Positions 5,305-62,990 of a stretch of 64,000 bases of DNA are shown here, one piece after another (the first letter of the stretch is position 1; every line of letters starts with the position of its first letter). The translations under genes and the position numbers were made by a program. The notes beneath the pieces are model-generated. The model saw only the letters and a list, made by a program, of their open reading frames with translations. It was not told where the DNA came from and made no database searches. Where the stretch lies: contig CAZDGL010000002.1 of assembly GCA_964505155.1 (NCBI GenBank), forward strand, positions 26,064 to 90,063. Reading direction: 5' to 3'. The DNA is from an uncultured Candidatus Saccharibacteria bacterium. GTDB taxonomy: Bacteria; Patescibacteriota; Minisyncoccia; Phycocordibacterales; UBA9973.

Positions 5305-7446
5305 TTAACTTCTTGATTTGATAATAGTGTCCGCGACGTTCTGAGGCACGATATCGTAACGCAAGAACTCCATGGTAAAACCAGCGCGTCCTTCAGTCAT
5401 AGAGCGAAGTGTTGTCATGTAACCAAACATTTCTGAAAGTGGCACCACAGCACTTACTGCTTGGTTGAGACCTCTTGTTTCCATACCTTCGATAAGACCT
5501 CGACGAGATGAGAGAGAGCCATTGACGTCTCCCATGAACTTGTCAGGAGTTACAACCTCTACCTTCATCATCGGCTCAAGGATCACAGGGCGAGCTGCCT
5601 TACATGCGTCTTGGATAGCCATAGAAGAAGCAATCTTGAACGCCATTTCGTTTGAGTCGACTTCGTGGAAGCTTCCATCATAAAGATCCACAGACACGTT
5701 CTCCATTTTAAACCCAGCCAAGATACCTCGATCGAGACCTTCTTTGAGACCTTTTTCGATAGCTGGGATGAATTCTCCTGGAATAGCTCCTCCTTTGATG
5801 TTGTTGATAAATTCAAATCCACTACTTCTCTTTGTGTTCTTTGGAAGATCTTTTTCATCCACAGACTGATCCATAGGTTTGATTTTGATTTTTACGTGAC
5901 CGTAGTTACCCTTACCACCGGATTGCTTGATGTATTTACCTTCTGCTTGTGCTTCACCAGTAATAGTTTCTCGGTAGGCTACTTGTGGTTTACCTACATT
6001 TGCCTCCACACCGAATTCTCGCTTCATACGATCCACGATAATTTCAAGGTGAAGTTCCCCCATACCTGCGATGATGGTTTCTTCTGTTTCTGGATCAGTA
6101 GAGACTTTGAAGGTTGGATCTTCATCAGCAAGCTTATTGAGAGCAAGACCCATTTTTTCTTGGTCAGCTTTTGTTTTTGGCTCAATACGAAGGTTGATAA
6201 CAGGCTCTGGGAACTTGATACGATCAAGTGCCACAGGATTTTTCTCATCACAGAGAGTGTCGGAAGTCTTGGTGTCTTTAAGTCCTACAGCAGCTGCGAT
6301 TTCTCCAGCAAAAACTTTCTTCACTTCTTCACGTTGATCGGCTTGCATACGCACGATACGAGAGAGACGTTCTTTGTTGCCAGTACGAGGATTGTAAACA
6401 TAAGAACCAGATTCGATAGTTCCAGAATAAACACGGAAAAAGACTAGCTGACCAACGAACGGATCCACCATACTCTTGAAAGCAAGAGCAGAAAACGGAG
6501 CATTGTCGTCTGCTGGAAGAGCAACTGCCTCTTCGGTATCTGGGTTGGTTCCAGTAACAGCCTTGATGTCTGTTGGAGCTGGTAGATAGTCCACCACAGC
6601 GTCAAGCACTAGCTGAACACCTTTGTTTTTCAAAGCACTTCCGGCATATACAGGGAAAATAGCGTTGGCGATGACAGCTTTTCGAAGTGTTTTCTTGAGT
6701 TCTGGTAGTGTTGGAACAGTCCCTTCTAGATAAGCTGACATTTGATCATCATCATTTTCTACGATACGTTCGATAAGCTCATCGTGATATTTTTGTGCAT
6801 CTGCCATCATGTCAGCTGGGATTTCTTTTTGAACTACTTTATTACCCATGTCGCCTTCAAAATAGTAAGCTTTCATTTCTAGAAGATCTACTACTCCTTC
6901 GTGCTTATCTTCAAGACCGATAGGGATTTGTACACGTACTGCTTTTTTAGAGAGTCGGTCGAGAATAGTTTTGTATGAGTGCTCAAATGAAGCACCAGTT
7001 CGGTCGAGCTTGTTTACAAAACAAATGCGGGGTACATTGGCTTCATCAGCATAACGCCAGTTGGTTTCTGATTGTGGCTCTACTCCAGCTACACCATCAA
7101 ACACCACCACAGCACCATCAAGCACACGAAGACTTCTCTTCACCTCAACAGTAAAGTCGATGTGTCCAGGAGTATCGATAATGTTAAATCTGTAAGAGTT
7201 CTTTTTGTCACCACCTGAATATGTCGGAATCCAGTTACAAGTCACAGCAGCAGCAGTGATAGTAATACCACGCTCACGCTCTTGTTCCATCCAGTCTGTA
7301 GTAGTCTCACCATCGTGCACCTCTCCTATCTTGTGGCTCATACCTGTATAGTAAAGGACGCGCTCTGAAGTGGTTGTCTTACCCGCATCAATATGGGCAA
7401 TGATTCCAAAGTTTCTTGTTCGCTCTAATGAATATTCTCGTTCCAT
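5305..7446 (-). CDS. fusA: Elongation factor G
   Basis: 713 aa; [10 protein letters not shown] and DTPGHIDF motifs; downstream of rpsG. Confidence 0.97.
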
Positions 7447-7711
7447 AAATTATTAATATTTGTTGTGTAAATTATAATTAAAAATAGAGCCCGACCGGGA
7501 CCTGCTTTTAGTGCAAATACTATACGATTAAACGATTATTTTTGCAACAAAAAACCCCGGTAGAAACCGGGGTTTTAATGAGACCAACTGCTTCTGTAAA
7601 GCCTCATTAAACCAAAACCAAATCCTTATGAGAACCTGTGTAAAGACTACCATAGCATAAATAAAAAACAAGCCCTAGCTGATAGTGTCAGCGAGGGCTT
7701 GTTTTTTGGGC

Positions 7712-8182
7712 TTACCAAGCAAAGTGAGCAAAAGCTTTGTTGGATTCTGCCATTTTGTGAGTATCCTTTTTCTTCTTAACAGCATTTCCTTCCCCTTTTG
7801 AAGCTTGGATAAACTCTTCAGCCAAAGCGTTGGCAATAGTGATGCCTTTGCGAGCTCGAGCGCTTTCGATGATCCATCTCATCGCTAGAGCAAGTCGGCG
7901 CTCATTGCGTACTTCTCTTGGAACTTGGTAGTTAGCTCCTCCAATACGTCGAGAACGTACTTCTACAAGTGGTCCTGCATTCTTGATAGCATTTTCAAAT
8001 ACTTCCATCGGATCTTCTACGCCTTCTTTTTCCTTCACGATATCTAGAGCATCATAAACCGCACTGCGAGCAGTGTTTTTCTTACCATCCCACATGATGC
8101 AGTTGATAAACTTCTCCAGCTTGAGTGAACCAAACTTGATATCAGGAGAAACCATATTTCTGTTTTTTACTGGTCTTCGCAT
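7712..8182 (-). CDS. rpsG: 30S ribosomal protein S7
   Basis: S7 signature ...KFINCIMWDGKKNTA...LVEVRSRRIGGANYQVP..; 156 aa. Confidence 0.92.
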   Translation of the reverse strand: MRRPVKNRNMVSPDIKFGSLKLEKFINCIMWDGKKNTARSAVYDALDIVKEKEGVEDPMEVFENAIKNAGPLVEVRSRRIGGANYQVPREVRNERRLALAMRWIIESARARKGITIANALAEEFIQASKGEGNAVKKKKDTHKMAESNKAFAHFAW

Positions 8183-8188
8183 AAAATT

Positions 8189-8611
8189 TTATTTCTTAGC
8201 TGCCTTAGGACGCTTTGTTCCATAAGCACTTCTACTCTTTCGACGCTTTTCGATACCTTGAGTATCAAGCACTCCACGAACTATGTGGTATCTCACTCCG
8301 ATCAAGTCCTTCACGCGACCACCACGGAGCATAACCACTGAGTGCTCTTGTAGATTGTGCCCTTCTCCTGGGATATAAGCTGTTACTTCTGTACCGTTTG
8401 TAAGTCTTACACGAGCAATCTTTCGAACCGCTGAGTTAGGCTTCTTTGGAGTAGTAGTAGATACCTTTACGCAAACTCCTCTCTTAAATGGAGATGGGTA
8501 AAATACTGGGCGGTTTTTGATGTGGTTCATGCCACGAGAAAGAGCCACAGCTTTGCTTTTGCGTGGAGCCTTTGATCTTGGCTTTTTTATAAGTTGGTTT
8601 ATTGTTGCCAT
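8189..8611 (-). CDS. rpsL: 30S ribosomal protein S12, with an internal N-terminal insertion
   Basis: [10 protein letters not shown]...[30 protein letters not shown]...[20 protein letters not shown]. The start was moved to MATINQ, which is downstream of the first ATG of the ORF. Confidence 0.92.
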
Positions 8612-8654
8612 TTGTCCCGCTATCCTACTATAGTTCTCAAGTAAACGCAAGCCC

Positions 8655-9305
8655 CTAGCTCAGTGTTATCCCCGTCAGAAGGGTAAAAATCTTAAAAGCC
8701 AGAGGAGCTACAAACTTCCAACCCCAAAATAAGAATATGATGAGTATCGGCAAAGAATACTTTTCCAAAGCACGCATTTGTCTTTCATATTTAAAAGGCA
8801 AAATAGCCCCAAGGAAACGAAAACCATCAAGTGGAGCGATAGGGATAGCATTGAAAAGCGCCAAAACTATATTGACTAGTACAACGATGCTTGCGATTTC
8901 AAAAAAACCAGTAGAGTAGATATGAGCAAATGGAGCAAGACGAATAAGAAGTCCGAAAAATATCGCAATAGAGAGGTTGACCACAATCCCAGCGATAGCA
9001 ACTATCGCTACACTTTTTTTACCCCTTTTTAAGTTATCTGGATTGTATGGCACTGGCTTGGCCCAACCAACGACAAAACCGGCCTTGGAGAGAATAAGTA
9101 CCAAAGGCAGTATCACAGAGCCAAACCATTCTATGTGCTTCAGTGGGTTAAGTGTGATGCGCCCAAGCATTCGAGCTGTCGGATCCCCTTCTCGCTCAGC
9201 CGCGATGCCGTGCGCTACTTCATGCACGATGATGGAGATGATGAGAACTAGGAAATAAAATATAGAAAGTGAACCAGTCATAAAAGTAGTTATTAATATT
9301 TCCAT
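8655..9305 (-). CDS. Site-2 protease family (peptidase M50) membrane zinc metalloprotease
   Basis: HEVAHG HExxH motif inside a transmembrane helix; [10 protein letters not shown] motif; multiple hydrophobic segments. Confidence 0.75.
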
Positions 9306-9495
9306 ATTATAACATTGTTTTTTATATCAAATCAGAATGCTCATATTATAAGTATGTCCTATCGCAGACTGACTGAGCCGAGGTGAGAGAAAATCAGTAG
9401 ATTTTAATCGTGACATACGAATAATATGAGTATTCTAATTAAGAATCTCTTAATATATTGCACAATACTATCTGCTGTGTTATTATCTCGGGACT

Positions 9496-9741
9496 ATGGC
9501 AAAAGAATGTGTAGTAACAAAAAAGAGCTCCCTCGTAGGTGGTAAATACGCCAACCGTACTCGTGCGACTGTTTTCACACCAGTAGGCTCAGTCCGCCGA
9601 TATGCAAACCTTCAAAAGAAGCGTGTTTTTGTGCCGGAACTTGGCAAAAGCGTGATAGTTACTATCTCCCCTCAAGGCCTCCGCACTATCAAGAAAAACG
9701 GTGCCTACGCCACCCTCAAAAAAGCCGGAGCGATAAAATAA
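9496..9741 (+). CDS. rpmB: 50S ribosomal protein L28
   Basis: 81 aa, basic. Pattern MAKECVVTKK...GGKYANRTRATVF...RVFVPELGKSV matches the L28 family. Terminator at 9752-9775. Confidence 0.7.
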   Translation: MAKECVVTKKSSLVGGKYANRTRATVFTPVGSVRRYANLQKKRVFVPELGKSVIVTISPQGLRTIKKNGAYATLKKAGAIK

Positions 9742-9773
9742 TCTCCAAATAAAAATCCCCAAACGGGGATTTT

Positions 9774-10310
9774 TTAATGCCACATGTGATGTAATTCTTC
9801 AGTAAAAGGATCAAAAAATGGATGATCGTGCTCTTCTTCTGGAGGAAGAAAATCTACAAACCCTGTCCATTCTCTATCAAAACCAATAATGACAATGTCC
9901 AGACCTGCCAATTCTTTTGCTTCTTTTGCAAGATTAAAAGATTTTTTGTTTTGCGCGACAATACAGTGAAGATTTGATTTATCAAATTCAAATATCTTAC
10001 CTATCTTGGTAGATATGTAATCTTCTTGAGTAGCAAATGATATGGTTTTGTATTTTGATAAATCATAAAGTTCTGGTTGGTCGTACAGATTAACATTGTG
10101 GTCAAAAGGTATTTTGAGTTGTTTCTCAAAAAAATCATTTATTTTCCAATCTATGTAACTTTGTGGTTTTCCTCCATCACATATAGCAATAGGTTGTTGT
10201 ATCAGGGAAATAAAATAACTAAGTGGATATCTTTTATCCATAAGAATATTTTTAGAATGAACAAATTTGTTTACTAGTGTAGATATTACAAGTATTAGCA
10301 CAAAAGTCAA
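9774..10310 (-). CDS. Hypothetical protein (178 aa)
   Basis: ORF; acidic His-rich C-terminus EEEHDHPFFDPF. No family recognised. Confidence 0.45.
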   Translation of the reverse strand: MTFVLILVISTLVNKFVHSKNILMDKRYPLSYFISLIQQPIAICDGGKPQSYIDWKINDFFEKQLKIPFDHNVNLYDQPELYDLSKYKTISFATQEDYISTKIGKIFEFDKSNLHCIVAQNKKSFNLAKEAKELAGLDIVIIGFDREWTGFVDFLPPEEEHDHPFFDPFTEELHHMWH

Positions 10311-10358
10311 AAGTTTTTAGTTTGACTTATATACTACAAATGCTAGTGTAAAGAAAAA

Positions 10359-11183
10359 TTGATCACCTTAAAAACTTATACTATGAGTAAGGCACTCGCT
10401 AAAAAAGGGGTTTCTGGTCTAGAAAAAAGCTCACCAGCTACAATTGTTGTTAGAATACTTGGAGCAACAATGGATAACCAAATCAAAAGACTTTTAAAGA
10501 TATTGGAAGAAAATAAGTCTAATGATGCTGTGGTATTCTGTGTGTTAAGTGGAATATTCTATGTTATTGCCAACAATGAAGAATCAAATCTCAATGAGCT
10601 CTTTGAACTAGGACATCATGGAGACGCCATGGAAGAACTTGATACTCTGATTGAAAGTTTAAAGCAGATTTTGACCAAAGACAATTATGGCGACTACCAT
10701 ATAGCCGTTATGCCTGGAGAAGAAATCAAAAAAGAAGATTTTTGGATTTATGTCTGGGATAAATTATTTTTAAGAGTTCTGGATGAGGCTTTTGTGACAC
10801 AGTACTATAAAGATCGAATGTTTATGAGAGTAAACATTGTTAACAAAGTTTTATCTATTACTTCACAGTACAATCTTTTTAATAAAGATTTGTTTTATAA
10901 AAAACATCTCAAAAAAGCTGTCTGTGAAAAAATAGATATTTATTATGTAAACGGGTTTTCAAACTCTGTAAACAAAATCTGGGATGCCGGCAGAGCCGCA
11001 TGGGAATATTTCATGAGAAAAATTGTACTGTTTAACCCTTCAATACCTGATATCGCCAAAAAAGATATCGAAAAGAGGTGGCGAGTCTGGTTTTTGCTTG
11101 AAGATAACTACAAGCAGACACAAAAGGTTGTAAAAAGAAAAGAGCTTTTAAAAGAGCTCGAAGCTTCCTTGAAACTCATTTAG
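10359..11183 (+). CDS. Hypothetical protein (274 aa)
   Basis: ORF arranged divergently from the 9774-10310 gene. No family recognised. Confidence 0.45.
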   Translation: MITLKTYTMSKALAKKGVSGLEKSSPATIVVRILGATMDNQIKRLLKILEENKSNDAVVFCVLSGIFYVIANNEESNLNELFELGHHGDAMEELDTLIESLKQILTKDNYGDYHIAVMPGEEIKKEDFWIYVWDKLFLRVLDEAFVTQYYKDRMFMRVNIVNKVLSITSQYNLFNKDLFYKKHLKKAVCEKIDIYYVNGFSNSVNKIWDAGRAAWEYFMRKIVLFNPSIPDIAKKDIEKRWRVWFLLEDNYKQTQKVVKRKELLKELEASLKLI

Positions 11184-11219
11184 CTTAATGGGTAGGATAT
11201 AAACATCCTGCCCATTTTT

Positions 11220-11665: not shown

Positions 11666-12520
11666 TCATCTTTTATACCACTTAAATCCATCAGTTTCAA
11701 AGATTACCGCGCCTTCGGTTTGAGTCGAAAGATATGGCACGTTGAATTGTTTCAAAAGATTGAGGACTTCTTTGTGCGGGTGACCATATCTGTTGTTTTT
11801 GCCGGCGCTGATGAGAGCTAGGCTTGGGGTTGTGGCTTTGAGATATGCTGATGTTGTAGAAGTCCTTGAGCCATGGTGTCCAAGCTTCAAAATATCTACG
11901 TCAAGATTTTTTGATTCCTTTTTTGCTAAGTATTGCTCAATAGGCGCCGGTGAGTCCCCAGTAAAAAGAATGCTTCGCTTGCCTGAGACAAACTTCCCTA
12001 CCACTGAACCAGTATTGGTCTCCCATCCTCCTACATCTCTATCTGGAAAAAGTACTTCAAAGTATTCTGTGTCAGAGAAATTTATCTTCATCCCGCTCCT
12101 TAAAAAGTAAGCAGGTATCTTTTTGCTCTGAACCAACTTCATCAAGCTTTTATACTCCGCTGTTTCTCCTCCGACTTCTGAGGTGACAAAGACTCTGACT
12201 TTATATCTTTTCAAAACTTCATCAAGTCCACCGATATGATCCATGTCGGGGTGTGTCGCCAAGACTATATCGATACTTCTGTCATTCAAAGGCATGACCT
12301 TTGAGAGCTCTCCGAGGACTGTTGCGTCTTTGCCTCCATCTATAAGCATCTGCTTGCCATTGGTCGTTTGTATAAGAAAACTATCTCCTTGTCCGACATC
12401 AAGCATTGAGACCTTTGTTAAAGCAATCTCTGGCTTGGTATTTCTAGAGAGAAAAAGTCCGAGTCCAAGCAAAATACTGACTATGAGAAGCACTACGAGT
12501 CGAGAGAGCTTTTTGTTCAT
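11666..12520 (-). CDS. ComEC/Rec2 C-terminal metallo-beta-lactamase-fold domain protein, encoded as a separate gene
   Basis: Signal/TM at the N-terminus. MBL motifs LDVGQGDS and ATHPDMDHIGGL plus HHGS. Directly downstream of the ComEC membrane-domain gene. Confidence 0.75.
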   Translation of the reverse strand: MNKKLSRLVVLLIVSILLGLGLFLSRNTKPEIALTKVSMLDVGQGDSFLIQTTNGKQMLIDGGKDATVLGELSKVMPLNDRSIDIVLATHPDMDHIGGLDEVLKRYKVRVFVTSEVGGETAEYKSLMKLVQSKKIPAYFLRSGMKINFSDTEYFEVLFPDRDVGGWETNTGSVVGKFVSGKRSILFTGDSPAPIEQYLAKKESKNLDVDILKLGHHGSRTSTTSAYLKATTPSLALISAGKNNRYGHPHKEVLNLLKQFNVPYLSTQTEGAVIFETDGFKWYKR

Positions 12521-12540: not shown

Positions 12541-13131
12541 ATGTTTACAGAACAAAAATTCAATATCCCAACATTGCACGGTATTAGCACAAAAACCATA
12601 GAAGAGCATGTGAAGCTCTATGCTGGCTATGTCAAAAATACAAATGCCATCATTGAAAAAATGAGCACAATAGATAGCGAAAAAGATGCTTATGCCTTAG
12701 GAGAACTCTTCCGCAGATTTAGCTTTGAGTACAATGGCATGCGCAACCATGAAGTGTATTTCTCTCTCTTTGAGGGTGGTGCAAAAGCTCTTGATCCAGA
12801 AAGTGCACTCGGCAAAACACTACTTGGACTATTCGGAAGTTATGAAAGATTTATCGAAGAATTCACTTCTCTTGCAACTACTCGCGGTATCGGCTGGGCA
12901 GTCCTCTGGTATGACAAAAAACAAAAGACTATCCTTGCGTCATGGGTAGATGAACAACACTTGGGCCAACTCAACGGTTGTGAAATGATTATCGGACTTG
13001 ATATGTGGGAGCACTCATATGTCGCAGATTATCAACCTTCTGGCAAAAAACAGTATGTTGCTGATTTCTTTGCAAATATTAACTGGTCAGTGGCTGAAAA
13101 ATATTTCTCAGATGCGCAAAGTAAAGCTTAA
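12541..13131 (+). CDS. sod: Fe/Mn-family superoxide dismutase-like protein
   Basis: C-terminal IGLDMWEHSYVADY (canonical D..WEHAYY) and a mid-protein NHEVYF. The N-terminal His pair is altered (KLYAGY instead of KHHQTY). Confidence 0.65.
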   Translation: MFTEQKFNIPTLHGISTKTIEEHVKLYAGYVKNTNAIIEKMSTIDSEKDAYALGELFRRFSFEYNGMRNHEVYFSLFEGGAKALDPESALGKTLLGLFGSYERFIEEFTSLATTRGIGWAVLWYDKKQKTILASWVDEQHLGQLNGCEMIIGLDMWEHSYVADYQPSGKKQYVADFFANINWSVAEKYFSDAQSKA

Positions 13132-14536
13132 TGTTTTTTCGGAAAATTATAGTAAACAAAACTACATAAAAAGACACAACACACCAAGCCGGCAAGCTTG
13201 GTGTTTGCCATTGTGGGAATGTCGAGAGCGAGGTTAGAAGTTTTATCGTCATTTCACCTATCACTGAAGTAATGCCTCCAAAGATACCAGCTAAAAACGG
13301 TATGAAAGAAATTGCCAAAGTAACAAGTCCACCAAGCATCAAGACAGGGATAATAGGAACTAGAACAATGTTGGCAATTGGCGAAACCAGCGGGAAAAGA
13401 CCAGAGAAATACATCATATAAGGAAGCATAAAGATAGGAAGCCCAACAGCCAAAATAATAGTCTCTAGCAGATTTGTTTTCCATTTAGGTTTTATTTCAT
13501 CATCGCCAGCAAATTTATTTTTTAAAATTGGAAGGATTGTGATGATAAACAGCGTAGCCAAAAAAGATAAATGTAGTCCAGGATCAACGAACACAATCTT
13601 GGGGTTTAGGAAAAAGAAAAACAGTCCTGAGATGATGAGCGCTCGCAAGGCTTGATAGTTTTGAAGCGTCATGCCAGCAAAAAGCGCGATGCTCCCCATA
13701 ATCCCAGCACGCACTGCCGCTACTCCTGCTCCACTTATAAGCACGAGCCCAGCGATACCGACACCTATGAGAACTGTCTTTATTCGAAATGGAAATCGTC
13801 TAAGCAACAGACCAAGGAATCCCGCCAAAACCGTGATGTTGTAACCAGAGAGCACCAAGGTATGTAGCGTCCCAGTATCTCGAAAAATATCCGAGAGGTA
13901 TTTGGGTATAGCGCCTTGAAATCCAACCAACATCCCCGCTACTATACCGTCTACCGGAAAGACTATGTGTCTAGATAAGGTACTAGCAATGAAGATGCGA
14001 GTTTGTGTTGCCAATCTTGTAAAAGAAAAGCTTCCAATTTCTACCAGACTAATTGTCGGACGACGCATGACTGCTTCCACTCCTCTACTTTCTAGATAGC
14101 CATCATAATCAAAAGTGCGCCCTGTCTCAGTCACAAAATCTTCTGGCTTCTCTACTATTCCTCGTACTGAGACTTTGTCTCCTGGCAAAAAGTTGGTCTC
14201 GCTATAAAGTGTAGCTTGCACATCAAAGTTTTCTTGATCTACCTTTAGAACCAAAAGCTCTCTATCAAGCCTTTGGTCTACGCTTTTGATGACACCCGTA
14301 AAAGCTCTGTTGCCAAATTCTATCTGTGGCTTTTCTACTACCCATAAACGCAAAGCTCCCAAACAAATGCTCATCAAGATAGCAAGTCCCAAGACCAAAG
14401 CCTTGCGACTACGAAAATACAAAACAAAAAACGCCCCCAAAAGAGCGCCCACCAAAACAACTTCCAAAATAGAAAATCCAAAGCTATGAAAAAGTACTGC
14501 CCCAAGCAACAAACTAATACAAAAAAGTATTAACAT
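13079..14536 (-). CDS. comEC: ComEC/Rec2 competence membrane channel domain protein
   Basis: 485 aa polytopic membrane protein with a DUF4131-like N-terminus. Followed by the MBL-domain gene. Its 3' end overlaps sod convergently. Confidence 0.7.
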   Translation of the reverse strand: MLILFCISLLLGAVLFHSFGFSILEVVLVGALLGAFFVLYFRSRKALVLGLAILMSICLGALRLWVVEKPQIEFGNRAFTGVIKSVDQRLDRELLVLKVDQENFDVQATLYSETNFLPGDKVSVRGIVEKPEDFVTETGRTFDYDGYLESRGVEAVMRRPTISLVEIGSFSFTRLATQTRIFIASTLSRHIVFPVDGIVAGMLVGFQGAIPKYLSDIFRDTGTLHTLVLSGYNITVLAGFLGLLLRRFPFRIKTVLIGVGIAGLVLISGAGVAAVRAGIMGSIALFAGMTLQNYQALRALIISGLFFFFLNPKIVFVDPGLHLSFLATLFIITILPILKNKFAGDDEIKPKWKTNLLETIILAVGLPIFMLPYMMYFSGLFPLVSPIANIVLVPIIPVLMLGGLVTLAISFIPFLAGIFGGITSVIGEMTIKLLTSLSTFPQWQTPSLPAWCVVSFYVVLFTIIFRKNIKLYFAHLRNIFQPLTS

Positions 14537-14554
14537 TTTTAAATTATACGAAGT

Positions 14555-14582
14555 TTGACAAAACTTTTCAAAAGGTTAGGAT
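14555..14582 (+). promoter_or_regulatory. Sigma70-like promoter module, copy 1 (TTGACA-16-TAGGAT)
   Basis: TTGACAaaacttttcaaaaggtTAGGAT; the same module recurs at 14977 and 15868. Confidence 0.55.
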
Positions 14583-14595
14583 GAGAGAAAAAAAT

Positions 14596-14919
14596 ATGAG
14601 CGATCCTTTAAGTGAAAATCTGAGAGAAGAGAAATTTAATGAGTTGTATCTAAATTATCTTCACAATCTCTTGCTGTACATAGAAATTGATTCAGTACAA
14701 AACCAAATCAATTTCTATGAATCTCTGATTGAAGTTGCCAAGGCAAAACCAACCCCTCACTTTATTGACCAAAAGATTGCTCGATTAAGAGCACTTAGGC
14801 GTGGTGACAGTAATGAGTGGTCTTCTTTATCAAAAGAGATACACGAGGGGTGTGTTGAAGAAAAACTTCTTAACATCTTCAAAAGAGTTAGCAAAAACAA
14901 ATTTGAGGAAAAACAGTGA
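14596..14919 (+). CDS. Cassette gene A, hypothetical (about 107 aa)
   Basis: ORF downstream of promoter module 1. The start is placed at the second ATG, the one conserved in position relative to the module. Terminator hairpin at 14945-14968. Confidence 0.5.
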   Translation: MSDPLSENLREEKFNELYLNYLHNLLLYIEIDSVQNQINFYESLIEVAKAKPTPHFIDQKIARLRALRRGDSNEWSSLSKEIHEGCVEEKLLNIFKRVSKNKFEEKQ

Positions 14920-14944
14920 GACATCACAAATTTCTCGTTTAAAC

Positions 14945-14968
14945 CAAAACCGGATAAAACCGGTTTTT
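14945..14968 (+). terminator. Intrinsic terminator AAAACCGG-ataaaa-CCGGTTTTTT
   Basis: Hairpin plus T-run; a near-identical copy sits at 15837-15860. Confidence 0.6.
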
Positions 14969-14976
14969 TCATTTGG

Positions 14977-15004
14977 TTTGACAAAATTTTTCAAAAAGGT
15001 AGGA
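14977..15004 (+). promoter_or_regulatory. Promoter module copy 2 (TTGACA-16-TAGGAT)
   Basis: TTGACAaaatttttcaaaaaggTAGGATGAAGAAAAAATAAAATATG. Confidence 0.55.
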
Positions 15005-15021
15005 TGAAGAAAAAATAAAAT

Positions 15022-15837
15022 ATGGTTAGAAAAAAACAAACAGAGCTTCACCGGCTGTGTATGTTTTACCCAGACCAGATGAAAGCAAGTGGAATCAAAA
15101 CATTCCAAGACCTAAAAAACAAGTTCATTAAAAATGGAAAATTTGTTCGTTTTTACGACAATAGCTTCAGACGTTATAAGCTGTGTAATTTTAATATTGC
15201 AGTTGCAGAATTATTGTTAGAAAAAAGATGTATCTCAAAAACAGAACGTTTGAAACAAAGCTCCTTGTATAGTTATCGCATTAGCGGTTGGAATCACAGA
15301 TTCTTCAAAAAGCATGGGCTTACTTATTTGGGAGAAGCAATAGATAGATGTATTGATAAAAAAGGGTCTTTCAAACCTATAGGTGGAAAAGATACCGCTA
15401 TCGCTACAAACCATCGCATCGCTGAAATACTAAATCAAACAGGCTTCCTTTCTGAAAAAGAGTTTTTAAAAGTTAGAAGACCTATATGGAAAAACCGAAA
15501 GTTAACAGATAAAGAACTTGGTGAATCAAAAGATGTCGTGGTCAATATTTCTAAATGGCCTTATGACACAAAAAGAATACTGAGTGTTCTCTGGAAACGG
15601 CGGCACAACTTCTCTTGGGATCGATACCAAACACCAACACCTGAAATAAAATCTGTAACTATTGGTTTTTTGGCAGAGGAGTTTATTCGCATTACTCCCT
15701 ATGACGATATACCTATATTTAAATCGAGAGGGCACAGACTAAATCATGCTTTTGCTCCCACTTGGACTGATAGAAACTTAGATGAAGCATTAGAAATCGT
15801 AGAGAAGACATTAAGAGAAAATAATCTACTTCCTTAA
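15022..15837 (+). CDS. Cassette gene B, hypothetical (271 aa)
   Basis: ORF between promoter module 2 and the terminator copy at 15837-15860. Basic; no family recognised. Confidence 0.5.
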   Translation: MVRKKQTELHRLCMFYPDQMKASGIKTFQDLKNKFIKNGKFVRFYDNSFRRYKLCNFNIAVAELLLEKRCISKTERLKQSSLYSYRISGWNHRFFKKHGLTYLGEAIDRCIDKKGSFKPIGGKDTAIATNHRIAEILNQTGFLSEKEFLKVRRPIWKNRKLTDKELGESKDVVVNISKWPYDTKRILSVLWKRRHNFSWDRYQTPTPEIKSVTIGFLAEEFIRITPYDDIPIFKSRGHRLNHAFAPTWTDRNLDEALEIVEKTLRENNLLP

Positions 15838-15860
15838 AAAACCGGCTAAAACCGGTTTTT
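15837..15860 (+). terminator. Intrinsic terminator AAAACCGG-ctaa-AACCGGTTTTT
   Basis: Hairpin plus T-run; a copy of the 14945 terminator. Confidence 0.6.
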
Positions 15861-15867
15861 GTTTTAT

Positions 15868-15895
15868 TTGACAAAGTTTCTCAAAAAGGTAGGAT
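15868..15895 (+). promoter_or_regulatory. Promoter module copy 3 (TTGACA-16-TAGGAT)
   Basis: TTGACAaagtttctcaaaaaggTAGGATGAAGGAAAAATAAAAATG. Confidence 0.55.
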
Positions 15896-15910
15896 GAAGG
15901 AAAAATAAAA

Positions 15911-16291
15911 ATGAGTACAATCAAGTATTTTAGTTTTGAGAAAAAATTAAAAGATATTGGCCTTAAAATGACCGATATTATAGCTCGGGTGACGATCGGC
16001 GAAAATGATATGGAGGAGACTCGGCTTAGCGTATCTATTGTTGGTGAGCATGGTGAAAGTGTTGTTTACTGCTCTGAATCAATAGGAGCAAATGTTTACG
16101 TAAATGGTGCTGATGACCTGCACAATCTGATGTATAGGCTTCATCAAATCATGCTAAACAACCTTGTTTGTCTTAATCCTTCTTCCCAAGAACCACAGAT
16201 TATTGAATGGTCTTCGGAAAAAAATGGTTATTTCAAAAAAAGACCAGCATTGAATGAAGAAATCATTCGCCTGCGAAAATTCTACACCTAA
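15911..16291 (+). CDS. Cassette gene C, hypothetical (126 aa)
   Basis: ORF following promoter module 3. A bidirectional terminator at 16296-16325 (TACTCCGCAttttGCGGAGTA plus T-run) is shared with the convergent rnhA. Confidence 0.5.
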   Translation: MSTIKYFSFEKKLKDIGLKMTDIIARVTIGENDMEETRLSVSIVGEHGESVVYCSESIGANVYVNGADDLHNLMYRLHQIMLNNLVCLNPSSQEPQIIEWSSEKNGYFKKRPALNEEIIRLRKFYT

Positions 16292-16324
16292 TTTACATAC
16301 TCCGCATTTTGCGGAGTATTTTTT

Positions 16325-17050
16325 TTATAAAAGTGTTTTGAGTGTATAGTCTTGAACCAAGCTAGTTTCCTCACCCTTTGAAAACACCTTTTGGTATTTT
16401 GCACCCTTTTTGCCTTTGACTCGTCTTTCACACTCTGCCCACGTTTTGTCCGCATACACCTTGCCATCAACTAGTGAAACATATGAATAAGCCGGGCCAG
16501 TTGTTTTTGACTTTTTCTTAGGAGAAGCTTTTTTTAGAGTCGTGCCAATATCCAAAAGAAATTTATCATAATCTTTTTGAGAGCCTTTGAAGAGCTGTTG
16601 TTTTTTGTGGAGCGCAGCATTGACCGCCAACTCATCACAGCGCTCATTGTAAAGCTCACCACCGTGGCCTTTGACCTTTTCTATGGAGAGTCTTTTGCCG
16701 TATTCTTTGAGGAGCGCCAAAAGCTTCACCCAGATATCTTTGTTTTCTACCGGAGTCTTGGTACTTGTGATCCAGCCTTTTTTCTCCCAACCCCAAATCC
16801 AAGAGTTCAGACCGTTTACTACATAAGCACTGTCAGAATAGACAATCACAGAGCCTTTATGAGCTCGAGCTGCACTATCAGAGAGCACCTCTAGCACTGC
16901 CTGAAGCTCCATTTGGTTGTTCGTGGCTTTCTTTGAAGCTCCGGCTATTTCCATTGCATAGTCTTGTACCAAAATAACTGCCCCCCACCCTCCCGGACCA
17001 GGATTCCCTCTCGACGCTCCATCTGTATAGACAATCAGTTTGTTTTTCAT
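16325..17050 (-). CDS. rnhA: Ribonuclease HI with a C-terminal RNA/DNA hybrid-binding (caulimovirus-VI-like) domain
   Basis: N-terminus IVYTDGASRGNPGPGGWGAVIL..., catalytic motifs and a basic linker. C-terminus AYSYVSLVDGKVYADKTWAECERRVKGKKGAKYQKVF resembles the HBD fold, which is normally N-terminal. Confidence 0.8.
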   Translation of the reverse strand: MKNKLIVYTDGASRGNPGPGGWGAVILVQDYAMEIAGASKKATNNQMELQAVLEVLSDSAARAHKGSVIVYSDSAYVVNGLNSWIWGWEKKGWITSTKTPVENKDIWVKLLALLKEYGKRLSIEKVKGHGGELYNERCDELAVNAALHKKQQLFKGSQKDYDKFLLDIGTTLKKASPKKKSKTTGPAYSYVSLVDGKVYADKTWAECERRVKGKKGAKYQKVFSKGEETSLVQDYTLKTLL

Positions 17051-17093: not shown

Positions 17094-17693
17094 TTATTTT
17101 ACCTTAAAGAAAAAGGTGTCACCAACAAAGCCTGGAGCTTCATCTGCAAAAATCAACGGATAAACACTTAGTTTAAAATTTGCAGGAGTGAAATTAAACT
17201 CAGGGGCACCCCCATCATTTCTATCGGTGTAGCAAAAACGATAGAGGAAGATGTTGTTAAAAACTTTTTTCCAGCCATTAGGAATGACAAAAAAAGAAAA
17301 AGCTTTCTTAGAATTTAAATTAAGAAAAAGGCTTTTCAGATACTCTTCATTACTATTAAAGATCTGGTTAAGTCTTGCTTCTTCAAAAGTAAATTCCATA
17401 GAGCATCTTTCTCTTGAAAGACCATTGTTTAATTCATAAATTAAGTCTGAAAGCCTAAGGTTTTTTAAAAGTTTAACCTTATGGTGCTCATGGTTTATTT
17501 TCCTTGATTCAATTTTAGAAGCTTCTAATTCAACTTCTTCTGCCCCTGCTGATCTAAACCTCCAATCAAAATAGATTTGATCAAATTTTAGAGGAACACC
17601 ATTGATTATTCTTTCTGGTAAATAGTTTTGTGTTTTGTATTTATTTAGATTAAAACTAACACAATCAATAAATAACTCGTTATTAAATTCCAT
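17094..17693 (-). CDS. Hypothetical protein (199 aa)
   Basis: ORF lying between the two copies of the rnhA 5'-end sequence. No family recognised. Confidence 0.45.
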   Translation of the reverse strand: MEFNNELFIDCVSFNLNKYKTQNYLPERIINGVPLKFDQIYFDWRFRSAGAEEVELEASKIESRKINHEHHKVKLLKNLRLSDLIYELNNGLSRERCSMEFTFEEARLNQIFNSNEEYLKSLFLNLNSKKAFSFFVIPNGWKKVFNNIFLYRFCYTDRNDGGAPEFNFTPANFKLSVYPLIFADEAPGFVGDTFFFKVK

Positions 17694-17757: not shown

Positions 17758-17812
17758 TGCGTTGGCCCAGGATTCCTTCTCGACGCTCCGTCTGTATAAA
17801 CAATCAGTTTGA
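17758..17812 (-). pseudogene. Relic of the rnhA 5' end (encodes KLIVYTDGASRRNPGPTQ then a stop)
   Basis: About 45 of 48 nt identical to 16997-17044 (ccaggattccYtctcgacgctccRtctgtataRacaatcagtttg). There is no start codon. Confidence 0.7.
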
Positions 17813-17836: not shown

Positions 17837-17860
17837 CAAGAAAAAACTTATGCCTAAAAA

Positions 17861-18154
17861 ATAAATTTTGGACTTGGAGACGTTATAGCCCAAACTAGAA
17901 AAGATAAAAATCTACTAGCAGAAGAAGTGGCTAGAAAAACCAAAATATGTGCTCCTTATTTGTCCTCGATAGAAAATAGCAGAAAGAAACCTTCTATCAA
18001 GGCGCTTAAAAGGCTTTCGAAAGTATTGGGCACAACTCCAGAGAAACTTTTGTTTGCTTGGTGGAGACATAACAATCCCAAAAAGTCTTATAACCTAAGA
18101 CAACAAATAGGGATACAAAATATCTTGAAAGAGGTTTTGGAGGTTATTAGCTAG
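17861..18154 (+). CDS. XRE-family helix-turn-helix transcriptional regulator with no canonical start codon
   Basis: In-frame translation ...NFGLGDVIAQTRKDKNLLAEEVARKTKICAPYLSSIENSRKKPSIKALKRLSKVLGTTPEKLL is a textbook HTH_3. There is no ATG/GTG/TTG upstream of helix 1. The first in-frame ATA is at 17861 and the first GTG is at 17927, inside the HTH. Confidence 0.55.
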   Translation: MNFGLGDVIAQTRKDKNLLAEEVARKTKICAPYLSSIENSRKKPSIKALKRLSKVLGTTPEKLLFAWWRHNNPKKSYNLRQQIGIQNILKEVLEVIS

Positions 18155-18215: not shown

Positions 18216-19226
18216 TCACCTAAGTTCTCTTCTGGCATTAGCAAGAGCACTTACTGTTTCATGATTTATTTCAGATATCTTTAAGTCTAGCTGTAATGTT
18301 TTTTTCATTGAAGAAACTAATCGAAAACAAACTTCTTCTAAACTCTGAGACAATTCTAGGATTTGGAAAAACTCGTCATAACTAAACCAAAGGTAAGGGT
18401 TTTTTATATCAATAGATCTATGATTGACCCTAACTCCGATATAAGTAAAAGCGAGATTGATGTTTTCCTTGTCAAAAGTCTCCCCTTTTAATTCACCTAT
18501 AAAAAAATCTTTATAGATACTTATTAAGTCTTCTGGGCGATCTGTATTATCCTCAAAACTTAATACCCTTTCTTTGATTCCTAATCTTTTAGAGGGCATT
18601 TTTAAGTTTAGACTACTTATAAATTGTTTGTAGTTTTTAGGGAGAAATGGAATCGAGTTTTCATCAAAAGATTTTTCAAAGCTATCTGTAGGGTAAATGG
18701 ATGCAATCTGTTTAAACATGGCGATATTAGCCTGAAACATTTCTTCAATCCTTTGATCAAAAATACTTGTTCTCATTGAGTTGTTATGGCAGGAGATTGT
18801 TAAGTCTTTAATTTTAGAAAAAAAGAAAATCTTTATAAGATTAATTATATCCCTTGTATAATCACTCAAAAATCCTCTATTTTCTAAAAAAAGAAAAAGT
18901 TTAGCATTTGGGGCTTTTTCTTCTAGATATCTAAAATTTTCTTTTACAACCTTAGTGTCAAAAGGAAGCTTGATATTACAACCTAAACCACAGCCAATTT
19001 CTTCTATACCAAAAGAGAACCTTTTTAAGTCAACAAGAAGTTCAGATATATCGCTTTGCAACGAAAACACTACTTCATCTTTTTTAAACTTGTTCTTAAG
19101 CTTACTTGTAGCTTCAAACATTAAATCATAGTATGGCCCGCTATTTGGTCCAGATACAACATGGGGACAAGTAGGGCACTTTGCTTTACAGCCCTTAGAT
19201 CCATAGTTGAGTATTTCTATCTGCAT
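18216..19226 (-). CDS. CX3CX2C-motif protein, possibly a divergent radical-SAM/Fe-S enzyme (336 aa)
   Basis: N-terminal GCKAKCPTCPHV matches CxxxCxxC. The rest is too divergent for me to recognise the SAM-binding motifs. Convergent with the HTH gene. Confidence 0.45.
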   Translation of the reverse strand: MQIEILNYGSKGCKAKCPTCPHVVSGPNSGPYYDLMFEATSKLKNKFKKDEVVFSLQSDISELLVDLKRFSFGIEEIGCGLGCNIKLPFDTKVVKENFRYLEEKAPNAKLFLFLENRGFLSDYTRDIINLIKIFFFSKIKDLTISCHNNSMRTSIFDQRIEEMFQANIAMFKQIASIYPTDSFEKSFDENSIPFLPKNYKQFISSLNLKMPSKRLGIKERVLSFEDNTDRPEDLISIYKDFFIGELKGETFDKENINLAFTYIGVRVNHRSIDIKNPYLWFSYDEFFQILELSQSLEEVCFRLVSSMKKTLQLDLKISEINHETVSALANARRELR

Positions 19227-19343: not shown

Positions 19344-20984
19344 TTATAAAACTTCTTGTATCCTCACTCTCACTCCTCCACGCCAGCCAGCTTCAAGGCT
19401 TCCGACAAATGAAATACTTTCCCCTTCTTTGATTTTCTCTTTCATTTCATCATCTACAAAAAAAGTAAACGCTGTTGCCTTGCCTGTTGCATCTTCAATG
19501 TTACATTCTAGATGTTCTTTGTTTTTGCCAAACATTTTTGTAGAAAGTACTCTCACATTTTCAAATAAAAAACTTGGTGCAATATTGCCAACACCAAAAG
19601 GCGCAAGGGCACGTAGCTTTTGTAAATGTCTAGTCGTCACTATACCTAGAGGCATTGGTATGGCATCAGTATTGTTTTTTTCTTCTGTAACATGATTAAC
19701 TTTTGAAATAGCTGTGTTGAGTTCTTGTTCTAAGAAATGTATCTTTTCTTTGGCAACTGCAAAACCTCCAGCTGCTTGGTGCCCACCGGCATGTAGTAGT
19801 ACTCCTTCAGGGAGAGCTTGGAAGATATAGGCTGCGTGATGCTCATCAAGCATGCGACATGAGCCTTTGATAACTCCATCTCCTGACTCACCCCAGACAA
19901 AGAAGCTCCGACTATATGTTTCTTGGAGCTTGGTAGCCACAAGTCCAAGCACTGCTGGTCGCCATGACAAGTCTCCAAGTACAACTATCTCTGGGAGATC
20001 TCTGCTATCGAGTTTTTTGTGAGCTTCTTTGACTATGCGTGCGACAAGGAGCTTTCTTTCAGCATTTATTTTTTCAAGCTCTTTTACTAAAGCAAGCGCT
20101 CGAGAAGGATTGTCAGTAGAAAGAAGCTCAAAGGCAAGCATAGGGGTATTCATGCGCGAAGCAGCATTTAATCGGGGCGCAACAGTAAAAGTCAGATCGG
20201 TCTCTGTCAGGGCATTCATATCCATCCTCTGCTCTCCAAAAAGCTCTCGCAGTCCAACTCGACGAGTCTTTTTCATAACCATCATGCCATATGTTACAAG
20301 CATTCTGTTCTCTCCCAAGAGTAGCACCATATCTGAAAGAGTCGCAAATCCTACGAGATCAAGCAACCATTTCTCCCAACCTTCTTTGATACCAAACTCT
20401 TCTCGATACTTTTCTAGAAAAGCGCAAACGAGATAAAAAGCGACTCCTGCTCCACACGGATCTTGGTTTGGATACGAGCTTTTTTTCGGATGCACTACCG
20501 CAAGGGCTGATGGATACTCTGCTAATGGCTCGTGGTGATCAGTCACTATGATATCCATCTCTCTACTGCGTGCATCAGCCACTTCAGCGATAGCGGTAAT
20601 ACCAAGATCAACAGTGATGACGAGCGAAACACCTTTGGCTTCAAGTGCATCTATACCTATCTTGCTAAGTCCATAACCTTCATCATGACGATCTGGTATA
20701 TAAACGTGTACTCTATCTTCTACTTTCAAAGCTTTAAATAAATCTAGAAGCACTACTGCTCCTGGTATACCATCACAATCATAGTCCGCATATATGCCTA
20801 TCTGCTCATCACCTTTAACTGCTTTGTAAATGCGCTCAACAGCGACACTCATGTCTTCAAACAAAGACAAATCTCCGAGTTTGTATTCTGGAAACAAAAA
20901 TGCCTTTTTTTGACTTTCATCAAGACCAAGTCTCTCTATCAGTATATCTTGCAACTGATCCGGTGTCGGAATAGTAGGGTTCAT
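19344..20984 (-). CDS. recJ: Single-stranded-DNA-specific exonuclease RecJ
   Basis: DHH motifs IYADYDCDG and VTDHH; DHHA1 region; 546 aa. Confidence 0.85.
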   Translation of the reverse strand: MNPTIPTPDQLQDILIERLGLDESQKKAFLFPEYKLGDLSLFEDMSVAVERIYKAVKGDEQIGIYADYDCDGIPGAVVLLDLFKALKVEDRVHVYIPDRHDEGYGLSKIGIDALEAKGVSLVITVDLGITAIAEVADARSREMDIIVTDHHEPLAEYPSALAVVHPKKSSYPNQDPCGAGVAFYLVCAFLEKYREEFGIKEGWEKWLLDLVGFATLSDMVLLLGENRMLVTYGMMVMKKTRRVGLRELFGEQRMDMNALTETDLTFTVAPRLNAASRMNTPMLAFELLSTDNPSRALALVKELEKINAERKLLVARIVKEAHKKLDSRDLPEIVVLGDLSWRPAVLGLVATKLQETYSRSFFVWGESGDGVIKGSCRMLDEHHAAYIFQALPEGVLLHAGGHQAAGGFAVAKEKIHFLEQELNTAISKVNHVTEEKNNTDAIPMPLGIVTTRHLQKLRALAPFGVGNIAPSFLFENVRVLSTKMFGKNKEHLECNIEDATGKATAFTFFVDDEMKEKIKEGESISFVGSLEAGWRGGVRVRIQEVL

Positions 20985-21274
20985 AGATTTGATTTTACCA
21001 TGATATACTGACCAAATGGATTTACTAATCTCTGTTGGGCTACCTATATTATTAATCTTAATCTGTAGTCTTTCTCTATCAAAAGCAAATTCTAAGGTCC
21101 TTAATCTTTTATTTTGGATTATAATAATTGCCTCTATAGGGTACTTATTATTTATAGGAATAGGAATTATTGCTTTAAAAAGTTTAGCTTAAATAAGACT
21201 AAGTAGTAATACTAAAAAAGATTTTATTAAAATAAAAATCTAAATTAAAAAGGCCAGCAACCGCTGGCCTTTTA

Positions 21275-21910
21275 TTACTGAGCTTGTCTGAGTAAAAGTT
21301 TTCCTTTGCGAAAATTAGGATCCTTTCCCTCAAAATAACAACTCCATCCTGCATGTACCAGCCAAGGCCTTTTGGAAAAAGTCCCTACAAACTCAACCTC
21401 TCCTGTAGGCAACATAAGTGGAAAAAAATTATAACCCTCAAAAAACAAAACTCCATTTTTCTTTTTTTCGTTCTTATGACGATTCAGAATTGAACAAATC
21501 TGTGAATAAGAGAAAGCTTGGGATGCCAAATCATTGGCGGATTTAATGCCTAACTCTTGAAACAGTTCATTAGGTTGGAGTGTGATATTTATATGCACAG
21601 ACTTGATTAAGCAATCTGGCTGAGGTGGTTGATGTTCAAGAACACACCTAACAAATTTATCATAGAGTACTCTATCAATTAATCTTTTCTTCCACAAAAC
21701 TTTTCTAGTTGTCGTCCTTACTGCTGGCAAAAAATAAGGTTTCGAGTCTGGAAAAGTAACTGGTTCAAAGTCTTTAACCTTATTCAAATGTTCAACTAAA
21801 AGCTCTTCGTTTCTAGCCCAAAAAAGTTGTACATTTTTGGGCAATTCTCTTAGTGCAGATATTACAGTTTGGCAAAGCTCAAGTGGTAGTTGATCTATTT
21901 CTGTTTTCAT
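21275..21910 (-). CDS. Hypothetical protein (211 aa)
   Basis: ORF followed by the terminator hairpin GGCCAGCGGTTGCTGGCC at 21253-21272. Confidence 0.45.
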   Translation of the reverse strand: MKTEIDQLPLELCQTVISALRELPKNVQLFWARNEELLVEHLNKVKDFEPVTFPDSKPYFLPAVRTTTRKVLWKKRLIDRVLYDKFVRCVLEHQPPQPDCLIKSVHINITLQPNELFQELGIKSANDLASQAFSYSQICSILNRHKNEKKKNGVLFFEGYNFFPLMLPTGEVEFVGTFSKRPWLVHAGWSCYFEGKDPNFRKGKLLLRQAQ

Positions 21911-21981
21911 AATTTACAATTTTCCTATAATCTACAGGTAAAAATTTATATGTCAATGCAAAAATCATATATAATATAAAA

Positions 21982-62672: not shown

Positions 62673-62990
62673 ATGAAAACATTTAGCGAAAGAGTTTTAG
62701 AATGTGCGCTCATGATACCGAGCGGGAGAGTGACGACTTATGGCCACATTGCAAAAGCAAGTGGTGGCGGAGGGCAATCAGCTCGCAGTGTCACAGCGAT
62801 ACTTGGTAAAGCTTACCAAAACGGAGAAACGAAAATACCTTTTCACCGAATTGTTTATGCTGGTGGCAAAGTCTGGCTTTCGAGTGGATACGAAAAGAAA
62901 CGACTTGCACTTTATAAAAAAGAAAAGATAGAAATAGATGCAAAAGGAAAAATCAAAAACTTTGAAAAAATACTGTTTGAGTTTAAATAA
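62673..62990 (+). CDS. Alkyltransferase-like (MGMT DNA-binding domain) protein lacking the active-site Cys
   Basis: VTTYGHIA..., with IPFHRIV where canonical MGMT has IPCHRV. Confidence 0.6.
   Translation: MKTFSERVLECALMIPSGRVTTYGHIAKASGGGGQSARSVTAILGKAYQNGETKIPFHRIVYAGGKVWLSSGYEKKRLALYKKEKIEIDAKGKIKNFEKILFEFK

Follow-up and report, generated by a model that had tools for sequence, protein, structure and literature searches.

A variable site between comEC and rnhA in a Paceibacteria genome carries unrelated orphan genes behind a repeated putative promoter module

Between comEC and rnhA, in a 64,000-nucleotide stretch of a Paceibacteria genome (positions 26,064 to 90,063 of contig CAZDGL010000002.1, hereafter the window; positions are counted from its first letter), three unrelated orphan genes, termed g1, g2 and g3, stand in a row, each equipped with one copy of the same predicted promoter and with one predicted terminator (region 14545-16325). 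We interpret this gap as a chromosomal hot spot for autonomous cassettes that resemble the morons of phages, which operates without an integrase, uses the terminator-promoter junctions as substrates for homologous recombination and exchanges arrays between strains. The probability of this reading is, in our estimate, about 0.7. Close strains differ here by exactly one repeat unit or carry an unrelated gene behind the same module, and the array itself is far less diverged between them than the genes on either side. All sequences used in this work are metagenome assemblies.

Bacteria of the Candidate Phyla Radiation (CPR), or Patescibacteria, have very small genomes, in which many genes lack a known function. 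To our knowledge, the way in which they gain and exchange genes is poorly understood, and mobile elements and integrases are scarce among them. The locus described here offers a concrete and testable example, with 21 orphan families at one fixed site behind one conserved promoter, and the spread of its cassettes between strains seems to outpace the divergence of the core genes around them.

Anatomy of the array

The module consists of TTGACA, a 16-nt spacer, TAGGAT, an A-rich leader and the ATG of the gene, and it measures 45-48 nt in its three plus-strand copies. When the 64-kb window was scanned with up to three mismatches allowed, three matches were obtained, all of them in the array, against 0.00 expected, and the pattern TTGACA-N15-18-TAGGAT returned the same three sites against 0.07 expected. 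The copies share 71-87% mutual identity over 55 nt according to a repeat finder. In a consensus scan, TTGACA-16-TAGGAT was again recovered three times on the plus strand, each copy matching the consensus at 10 of 12 positions, so that all three possess the -35 and -10 hexamers of a sigma-70 promoter at the spacing of 16-18 nt. Furthermore, 18 module copies standing before at least 11 different genes were aligned; TTTGACAAA and the TA...T positions are invariant, the spacing is fixed, and the homology stops at the ATG. The modules thus probably act as promoters. This agrees with an earlier note on this DNA, which had described a near-identical module in front of three unrelated open reading frames (ORFs; 107, 271 and 126 aa) and had taken each gene for an autonomous promoter-gene-terminator unit. 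Paralogy of g1, g2 and g3, frame-shifted relics included, was rejected, since blastp, tblastn and blastn among them gave nothing better than E ~0.1.

The predicted terminators of the first two genes were rightly called near-identical in the earlier note, as they are 23-nt CCGG hairpins with 96% identity and a T-run after each; terminator 1 reads AAAACCGG-ATAAAA-CCGGTTTT. All three terminators were also recovered by the consensus scan, at 14946-14967, 15837-15860 and 16297-16319. For the third gene, a terminator shared with the convergent rnhA had been proposed. This is only partly the case: the hairpin is stable on both strands and lies 5 nt past the rnhA stop codon, but a T-run follows it in the g3 direction (plus strand) only. 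Terminator, spacer and following module together form the junction repeats J1 and J2, whose starts are 890-892 nt apart as measured with the repeat finder, and whose longest common exact stretch is about 19 nt. The G+C content of the array is 0.34-0.37, compared with about 0.41 in the flanks. Known RNA families in the window are limited to tRNAs.

Two alternative readings of the ORFs were discarded. A 112-aa version of g1 would start inside the -10 box, and both the gene callers and the g1 orthologue in locus L012 use 14596. An upstream mini-ORF (ATG AAG AAA AAA TAA) in copies 2 and 3 has its ATG inside the -10 hexamer and was dropped because this ATG precedes any plausible transcription start. 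The coordinates of the features are collected in Table 1.

Table 1. Features of the array and of the surrounding region, in window positions unless a relative's locus is named; promoters and terminators are predictions.
Feature	Position	Strand	Remarks
comEC, left flank	13079..14536	-	Competence and DUF4131 domains; Pfam E 1.4e-38
comEC promoter	14543..14571	-	TTGAAA-17-TATAAT; 11/12 consensus match; -35 inside module copy 1
Module copy 1	14554..14598	+	-35 TTGACA, 16-nt spacer, -10 TAGGAT, A-rich leader, g1 ATG
g1	14596..14919	+	107-aa orphan protein, predicted helical
Terminator 1	14946..14968	+	hairpin and T-run; copy of g2 terminator; -9.7 kcal/mol
Junction repeat J1	14946..15021	+	terminator, spacer and module copy 2; paralogous to J2
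Module copy 2	14977..15024	+	g2 promoter and leader; orthologous to g2 promoters of L009, L010 and L011
g2	15022..15837	+	271-aa basic protein, rare family
Terminator 2	15837..15860	+	CCGG hairpin; orthologous to relatives' g2 terminators; -11.1 kcal/mol
Junction repeat J2	15838..15910	+	terminator, spacer and module copy 3
Module copy 3	15867..15913	+	g3 promoter and leader
g3	15911..16291	+	126-aa orphan protein
Terminator 3	16297..16319	.	10-bp hairpin between convergent g3 and rnhA; -14.5 (+), -15.0 kcal/mol (-)
rnhA, right flank	16325..17050	-	RNase H; Pfam E 3.9e-38
h199	17094..17693	-	orphan cassette with own TTGACA-17-TATTAT promoter and own terminator; second variable site
Remnant duplicate of rnhA 5' coding end	17764..17811	-	47 nt (cf. 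16995-17041); bounds the h199 insertion
h336	18216..19226	-	orphan gene; present in L131, absent from L147/L161
Window-side indel genes: h336, 211-aa ORF, 274-aa ORF	18216-19226, 20986-21981, 9776-11217		
L161-side indel genes: DUF7178, 177-aa, 156-aa and 271-aa genes, methyltransferase	L161 155-2470, 2926-4666		
Leaderless-type gene starts, examples	11666-12520, 12541-13131, 13079-14536, 16325-17050, 19344-20984, 28324-29541, 62673-62990		

The array in close strains

Two close strains, represented by the loci L147/L161 and L131, are about 95-97% identical to the window. In L147/L161, the order is comEC, module 1, g1, a terminator-module junction, g3 and rnhA. Its single internal junction can be aligned with J1 as well as with J2, and what is missing is exactly one repeat unit of 891 bp, made up of g2 and one junction and bounded in the window by J1 and J2. 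The recombination at shared modules suggested in the earlier note is thereby supported, as precisely one junction-to-junction unit distinguishes the two strains. In L131, comEC is followed by a module, the new 117-aa gene gX, a terminator (T'), a further module, g3 and rnhA, whereby gX replaces g1 and g2.

The divergence of the cassettes is well below that of their flanks. In comparison with L147, comEC differs by 4.82% and rnhA by 2.90%, while the segment from module 1 through g1 to its terminator differs by 0.46% and g3 with its terminator by 0.24%. The same tendency is seen for L131, where the differences amount to 6.1% in comEC, 5.2% in recJ and 2.8% in rnhA, versus 1.45% in g3 and 1.0% in the orphan gene h336. 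The contrast between cassettes and flanks gave Fisher p values of 2.5e-8 (L147) and 6e-12 (L131). Judged from the mismatch positions, the tract of low divergence from L147 covers about 14505-16405, in other words the array itself. Because g3 shows 0 synonymous differences from L147 and rnhA shows 18, the contrast reflects more recent common ancestry rather than stronger constraint. Combined, these comparisons suggest that the array was recently replaced by horizontal transfer between diverged strains and that the breakpoints lie at its edges.

Content of the gap among relatives

The gene order recJ>rnhA>comEC<sod>mbl is kept across Paceibacterota, and the flanking RNase H has relatives in metagenome-assembled genomes of Candidatus Paceibacterota/Nomurabacteria. 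In five loci (L014, L017, L018, L019 and L021), the rnhA/comEC gap measures only 0-40 bp, and this empty state is likely ancestral. Among about 20 loci, the gap holds 0-6 cassettes, and 1-6 in the closest relatives, whose rnhA is 73-87% identical. It contains the g1 orthologue alone in L012, g2 alone in L010, g2 in L009 (where the contig starts at the module), and g2 together with an unrelated 108-aa gene (p108) in L011. Other fillings are a 72-aa ORF in L015/L093, a 138-aa ORF in L023, an ORF of about 180 aa with a different promoter in L016, at least three cassettes in L135/L150, four in L099 and six genes in L013 (positions 6711-9912 of that locus). In most of the filled gaps, the gene adjacent to comEC is preceded by the same module. 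The variability expected in the earlier note is therefore evident from these syntenic loci, in content as well as in number, and the gap can be regarded, on sequence comparison, as a variable site and a hot spot between core genes. When 26 orphan proteins (the site cassettes plus three other orphans of the window) were compared all against all, only two related pairs were found, so that the site cassettes amount to 21 mutually unrelated families.

The array of L013 is built differently. Its junctions consist of a terminator, an element of about 26-30 nt (CTGGCAGTTTGGGACGATGTTAGAAC) and a TTGACA promoter; the element CTGGCAGTTTGGGACGATGTTAGAAC is repeated 4-6 times and, among the loci compared, occurs solely in this array, which also includes two small membrane proteins and a reverse-strand Ser_hydrolase gene. 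The idea that this element is a genome-wide repeat was abandoned, as no copy outside that array was found in the sequence compared. Since another junction is used there, the array habit appears to be recurrent and the repeat sequence local. As a separate observation, L118 carries at 880-990 a perfect module copy followed by ATG TAT TAA and a long hairpin terminator, which resembles an 'empty' cassette slot.

One alternative is a strictly vertical history, in which an ancestral array of many cassettes lost different members through deletion between direct repeats and horizontal exchange played no part. The sharing of g1 with L012 and of g2 with L009, L010 and L011 would fit such a history, as the respective dN values of 0.29 and 0.23-0.40 are similar to that of comEC (0.24), and direct repeats do favour deletion. 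However, between the strains of about 97% identity the cassettes are 5-10 times less diverged than the flanks, synonymous sites included, the ancestral array would have to be implausibly large to account for 21 unrelated families in about 16 genomes, and in L131 the same module precedes a different first gene. We therefore consider a purely vertical origin improbable.

Predicted promoter types and the divergent comEC promoter

The putative comEC promoter lies on the minus strand and overlaps module copy 1, which accordingly appears as a back-to-back promoter pair. Its -10 box ends 6 nt ahead of the comEC ATG, and a TATAMT box adjoining this ATG is kept in relatives; the comEC mRNA is probably leaderless. 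A similar arrangement is found at most housekeeping genes of the window, including comEC, rnhA, recJ, sod and mbl: a TATAAT-like -10 box stands 6-7 nt upstream of the ATG, and a Shine-Dalgarno sequence is missing. Their mRNAs are predicted to be leaderless for this reason, which suggests that leaderless mRNAs are widespread in the source Paceibacteria genome.

A second promoter class has the form TTGACA-16/17-TAnnnT, followed by nAAGAAAAA and a short leader, and was found eight times in the window; the genes that follow it are mostly orphans of low G+C. In its general form, the module thus corresponds to the standard leadered promoter of this genome, and the locus-specific feature is the near-identity of spacer, leader and preceding terminator. 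Neither this standard layout nor the bidirectional nature of module copy 1 was noticed in the earlier note, which also missed the further cassette-type insertion/deletion (indel) sites nearby. In practical terms, the locus may provide a natural, compact promoter-leader-terminator set for gene expression in Paceibacteria.

The -35 box and spacer of the module are covered by a 19-bp imperfect palindrome, TTTGAcAAAnTTTnTCAAA, and this raises the question of a co-regulated mini-regulon, whose repeats would be kept for coordinated control instead of recombination and in which the palindrome would be the operator of a dimeric regulator, for example the nearby XRE-type helix-turn-helix (HTH) protein. 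All three copies and many orthologous ones contain the palindrome, and an HTH_3 gene located about 1.5 kb away is present in all three close strains. On the other hand, the second half-site is accounted for by the divergent comEC -35 box TTGAAA, so that the apparent palindrome seems to be largely two opposed -35 boxes. In addition, L009, L011 and L013 have kept the -35 and -10 boxes but no longer the palindrome, L013 and L023 have the module but a recJ-rnhA spacing of only 10-23 bp, which leaves no room for an HTH gene there, and the presence or absence of whole units is unexplained by regulation. As the sole explanation of the repeats, control by a regulator is about as improbable as vertical thinning, but it is compatible with the recombination reading and does not exclude it.

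Further insertions and short duplications

Strain-specific insertions are not confined to the comEC/rnhA gap. In L013, L019 and L023, recJ and rnhA are direct neighbours; in the window, h199 and h336 lie between them. Of these, h199 is absent from both L147/L161 and L131, and its insertion is bounded by the duplicated 5' coding end of rnhA; directly after the h199 terminator, a fresh rnhA start with its own new -10 box is found. In total, six indel sites distinguish the window from L161 over about 15 kb, each consisting of a small autonomous gene or a pair of such genes, almost all orphans. One of the L161 genes encodes 271 aa, the same length as g2, but it is unrelated and was rejected as a translocated g2, the equal length being coincidental. 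A piece of about 60 nt, comprising the last ~25 nt of rpmB (L28) and a terminator hairpin, occurs once in the window (9716-9775) and three times in L161 (~95-154, 1233-1292 and 1868-1930), one per cassette boundary. Hence, all three insertion sites examined at the junction level, that is g2 with J1 and J2, h199 and the L161 site, are bounded by short direct duplications of 45-80 nt. These would fit insertion-duplication or Campbell-type recombination.

Such duplications could also be read as att-type sites of a site-specific, integron-like system, with a recombinase encoded elsewhere and cassettes moving as circles. In favour of this, the junctions contain palindromes, and the L013 element of 26-30 nt is found only at the cassette junctions of that array. 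Yet the duplicated sequences vary by site (the promoter module, the rnhA coding end and the rpmB end), which speaks for homology-driven rather than fixed-sequence events. Moreover, no recombinase gene, be it integrase or transposase, was found up to about 5 kb away, either in L161 or in the window strain; the genes within this distance are rpmB, orphans, mbl, sod, comEC, rnhA, the HTH gene and recJ. The locus does share with integron arrays the tandem order of unrelated single-gene cassettes, mostly of unknown function, at one fixed site, the repeated palindrome-containing junctions and a cassette number that varies between strains. In contrast to integrons, no intI gene lies within about 5 kb and attC structures are lacking, as the junction hairpins are simple G+C stems with T-runs and no GTTRRRY core is common to J1 and J2. 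In addition, each cassette carries its own promoter instead of depending on a common Pc, and the repeats are themselves transcription signals. With these differences, the region lacks the defining features of an integron within the sequence searched, and a related site-specific system is no better a candidate than the two alternatives above.

Relation to known systems

Morons, as reportedly described by Hendrix, Juhala and colleagues, are autonomous promoter-gene-terminator insertions in the genomes of lambdoid and other phages. The cassettes resemble them in being single-gene units with their own sigma-70 promoter and intrinsic terminator (here read from sequence), inserted between conserved genes, lower in G+C and present or absent among close relatives. 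They differ from morons by their location in a bacterial (CPR) chromosome with housekeeping flanks, where no phage genes, PHROG matches or viral relatives were found, and in that several units stand in tandem, with one promoter module and one terminator used repeatedly.

Oliveira, Touchon and Rocha, and likewise Rodriguez-Valera, are said to have characterised chromosomal hot spots and flexible genomic islands that lie between core genes. The locus is a clear member of this class: core genes bracket the insertion point, turnover is high, and exchange via homologous recombination in the flanks is the probable route. What makes it unusual is its tiny size (0-3.2 kb), a content of almost exclusively lineage-restricted orphans, the reuse of one compact expression module and, unlike other hot spots of this kind, the lack of mobile-element machinery together with internal junction repeats that would add crossover points.

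A further parallel is found in the lpl tandem cluster of Staphylococcus aureus, whose recombination unit is reported to consist of the 3' end of one ORF, the intergenic region and the 5' end of the next ORF (PMC2568036). In both cases, the junction between ORFs rather than the ORF is the repeated unit of a tandem array; the lpl genes are paralogues, whereas the genes here are unrelated and the conserved unit stops at the ATG. In our literature search, neither this locus nor arrays of this kind in Patescibacteria were found to have been described.

The cassette proteins

For g1 and g3, no homologues beyond the species were found among 5.8 billion clusters; the g1 orthologue in L012 shares 58% identity. 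The earlier note's picture of accessory cargo is thus not borne out in the sense of widely shared genes. The comparison of g1 with L012 gave pN 0.24 and pS 0.76, and for g1 and g2 together pN ranges over 0.20-0.31 versus pS 0.70-0.79. As pN is far below pS, both are real genes, evidently under purifying selection; their dN values are those given above.

The g2 family is rare, with four clusters among 5.8 billion and 13 representatives among 1.84 billion. A helical domain of about 60 residues in g2 is structurally matched by the C-terminal domain of the RNA polymerase alpha subunit (alpha-CTD), a helix-hairpin-helix (HhH) fold, and on the strength of this domain, g2 is probably a protein that interacts with DNA or RNA polymerase. 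A PDB sequence search with the g2 profile gave no match. Distant g2 relatives were also observed at other variable places: one in L153 (1-100), directly beside the 3' end of a tRNA gene, and one in an accessory stretch of L154 (6001-12600), which also holds a Ser_hydrolase gene of the same Pfam family as that in the L013 array.

The earlier note recognised no family among the three products, and the searches concur, as g1, g2 and g3 have no match in Pfam, PHROG or PADLOC. Among the cassette proteins of relatives, 19 of 20 are without a known family, and the only Pfam family detected is Ser_hydrolase. These results bear on the note's proposal of defence genes, according to which the site would be an island of anti-phage defence or other known accessory cargo. 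The region is indeed strain-variable and lower in G+C than its flanks, and small, independently transcribed genes between core genes would be expected of such an island. Nevertheless, PADLOC gave no match for g1, g2, g3, h199, h336 or gX, its weak ThsC/HIT-like match falling only on a conserved HIT gene 5.7 kb away, and the cassettes encode single small proteins rather than multi-gene systems. There are no viral relatives either: a phage origin was rejected since g1, g2 and g3 lack them and the module pattern gives only four unrelated IMG/VR matches. The claim of defence cargo is accordingly not supported, and we rate it slightly below the alternatives discussed before. The cassettes nonetheless yield a short list of fast-moving orphan proteins, among them the alpha-CTD-like one, which may act in host interaction or conflict.

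Proposed mechanism

In the mechanism that we favour, each cassette would comprise a single orphan ORF, preceded by a near-consensus sigma-70 promoter and an A-rich leader of about 10 nt that lacks a Shine-Dalgarno sequence, and followed by an intrinsic terminator. The promoter module would be native to the comEC-proximal edge, where it stands back to back with the leaderless comEC promoter, and copies of the terminator-promoter junction of about 76 nt would separate the cassettes within the array. These junction repeats, together with the conserved flanks, would supply the homology for RecA-type recombination. An unequal or intramolecular crossover between junctions could then remove or add one junction-to-junction unit, and imported DNA exchanged between strains could replace the whole array. 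The junctions would thus be both products of and substrates for homologous recombination.

In Saccharibacteria, another class of Patescibacteria, DNA has been shown to insert by homology after ComEC-dependent natural transformation (PMC10633639), which makes this route plausible here. We infer that homologous recombination followed natural transformation, and offer as a hypothesis that junction homology directs recombination after ComEC-dependent DNA uptake; the direction of each event, gain or loss, is likewise a matter of interpretation.

Several points weigh against this mechanism. Promoter and terminator activity are deduced from sequence, and the repeats, with 45-80 nt and 87-96% identity, are near the lower limit for efficient RecA recombination. 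In the metagenome assemblies, neither circular nor linear intermediates were seen. The source of the orphan ORFs is left unexplained by the mechanism, and L013 uses a different junction repeat, so the sequence of the module is inessential to array formation. Only two close strains, known from metagenome contigs, underlie the divergence contrast, which might in principle also have arisen if the flanks had received diverged alleles of comEC, rnhA and recJ. Finally, the g2 event may be either a loss in L147 or a gain in the window strain. By far the weakest alternative is an artefact of assembly or of chimeric metagenome contigs, which the metagenomic source and the tendency of repeats to mislead assemblers might suggest, but which is hardly credible because the arrangement of three cassettes was found again in 8 independently assembled contigs (6 sequencing runs, 2 NCBI assemblies), the exact match of J1 and J2 is shorter than typical assembly k-mer sizes, and the flanks of L147/L161 and L131 differ by 3-6% from the window, which makes them separate strains.

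A broader proposal, which we put forward tentatively and consider rather unlikely in its full extent, is that gene capture and circulation without integrases is a property of Patescibacteria of this clade. Junctions or short target duplications would act as portable homology arms for excision, transformation and expression-ready re-insertion, and this process, with the comEC/rnhA array as its most advanced form, would underlie most strain-level variation in the gene content of these tiny genomes. If this were true, the site could also be an expression-ready nursery for new genes.

Neighbouring genes

Some minor observations concern the genes around the array. The XRE-type HTH_3 gene (17850-18154, plus strand) has a module-like promoter with TTGACA at 17809. 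Its start is frameshifted in the window at an A6 tract (17856-17861); the tract is A7 in L147, and L161 encodes an intact 101-aa protein. The frameshift could reflect a pseudogene, a slippage-prone tract or a sequencing error.

In many bacteria, a metallo-beta-lactamase forms the C-terminal domain of ComEC. Here, sod (12541-13131, plus strand) separates comEC from the metallo-beta-lactamase gene and converges on comEC (13079-14536, minus strand), the 3' ends overlapping by 53 nt, and this layout is kept across Paceibacterota. In the flanking RNase H, the C-terminal residues 199-221 show a weak match (E 0.0005, just under the Pfam cut-off) to the hybrid-binding domain that is found at the N-terminus of RNase H1 (Cauli_VI).

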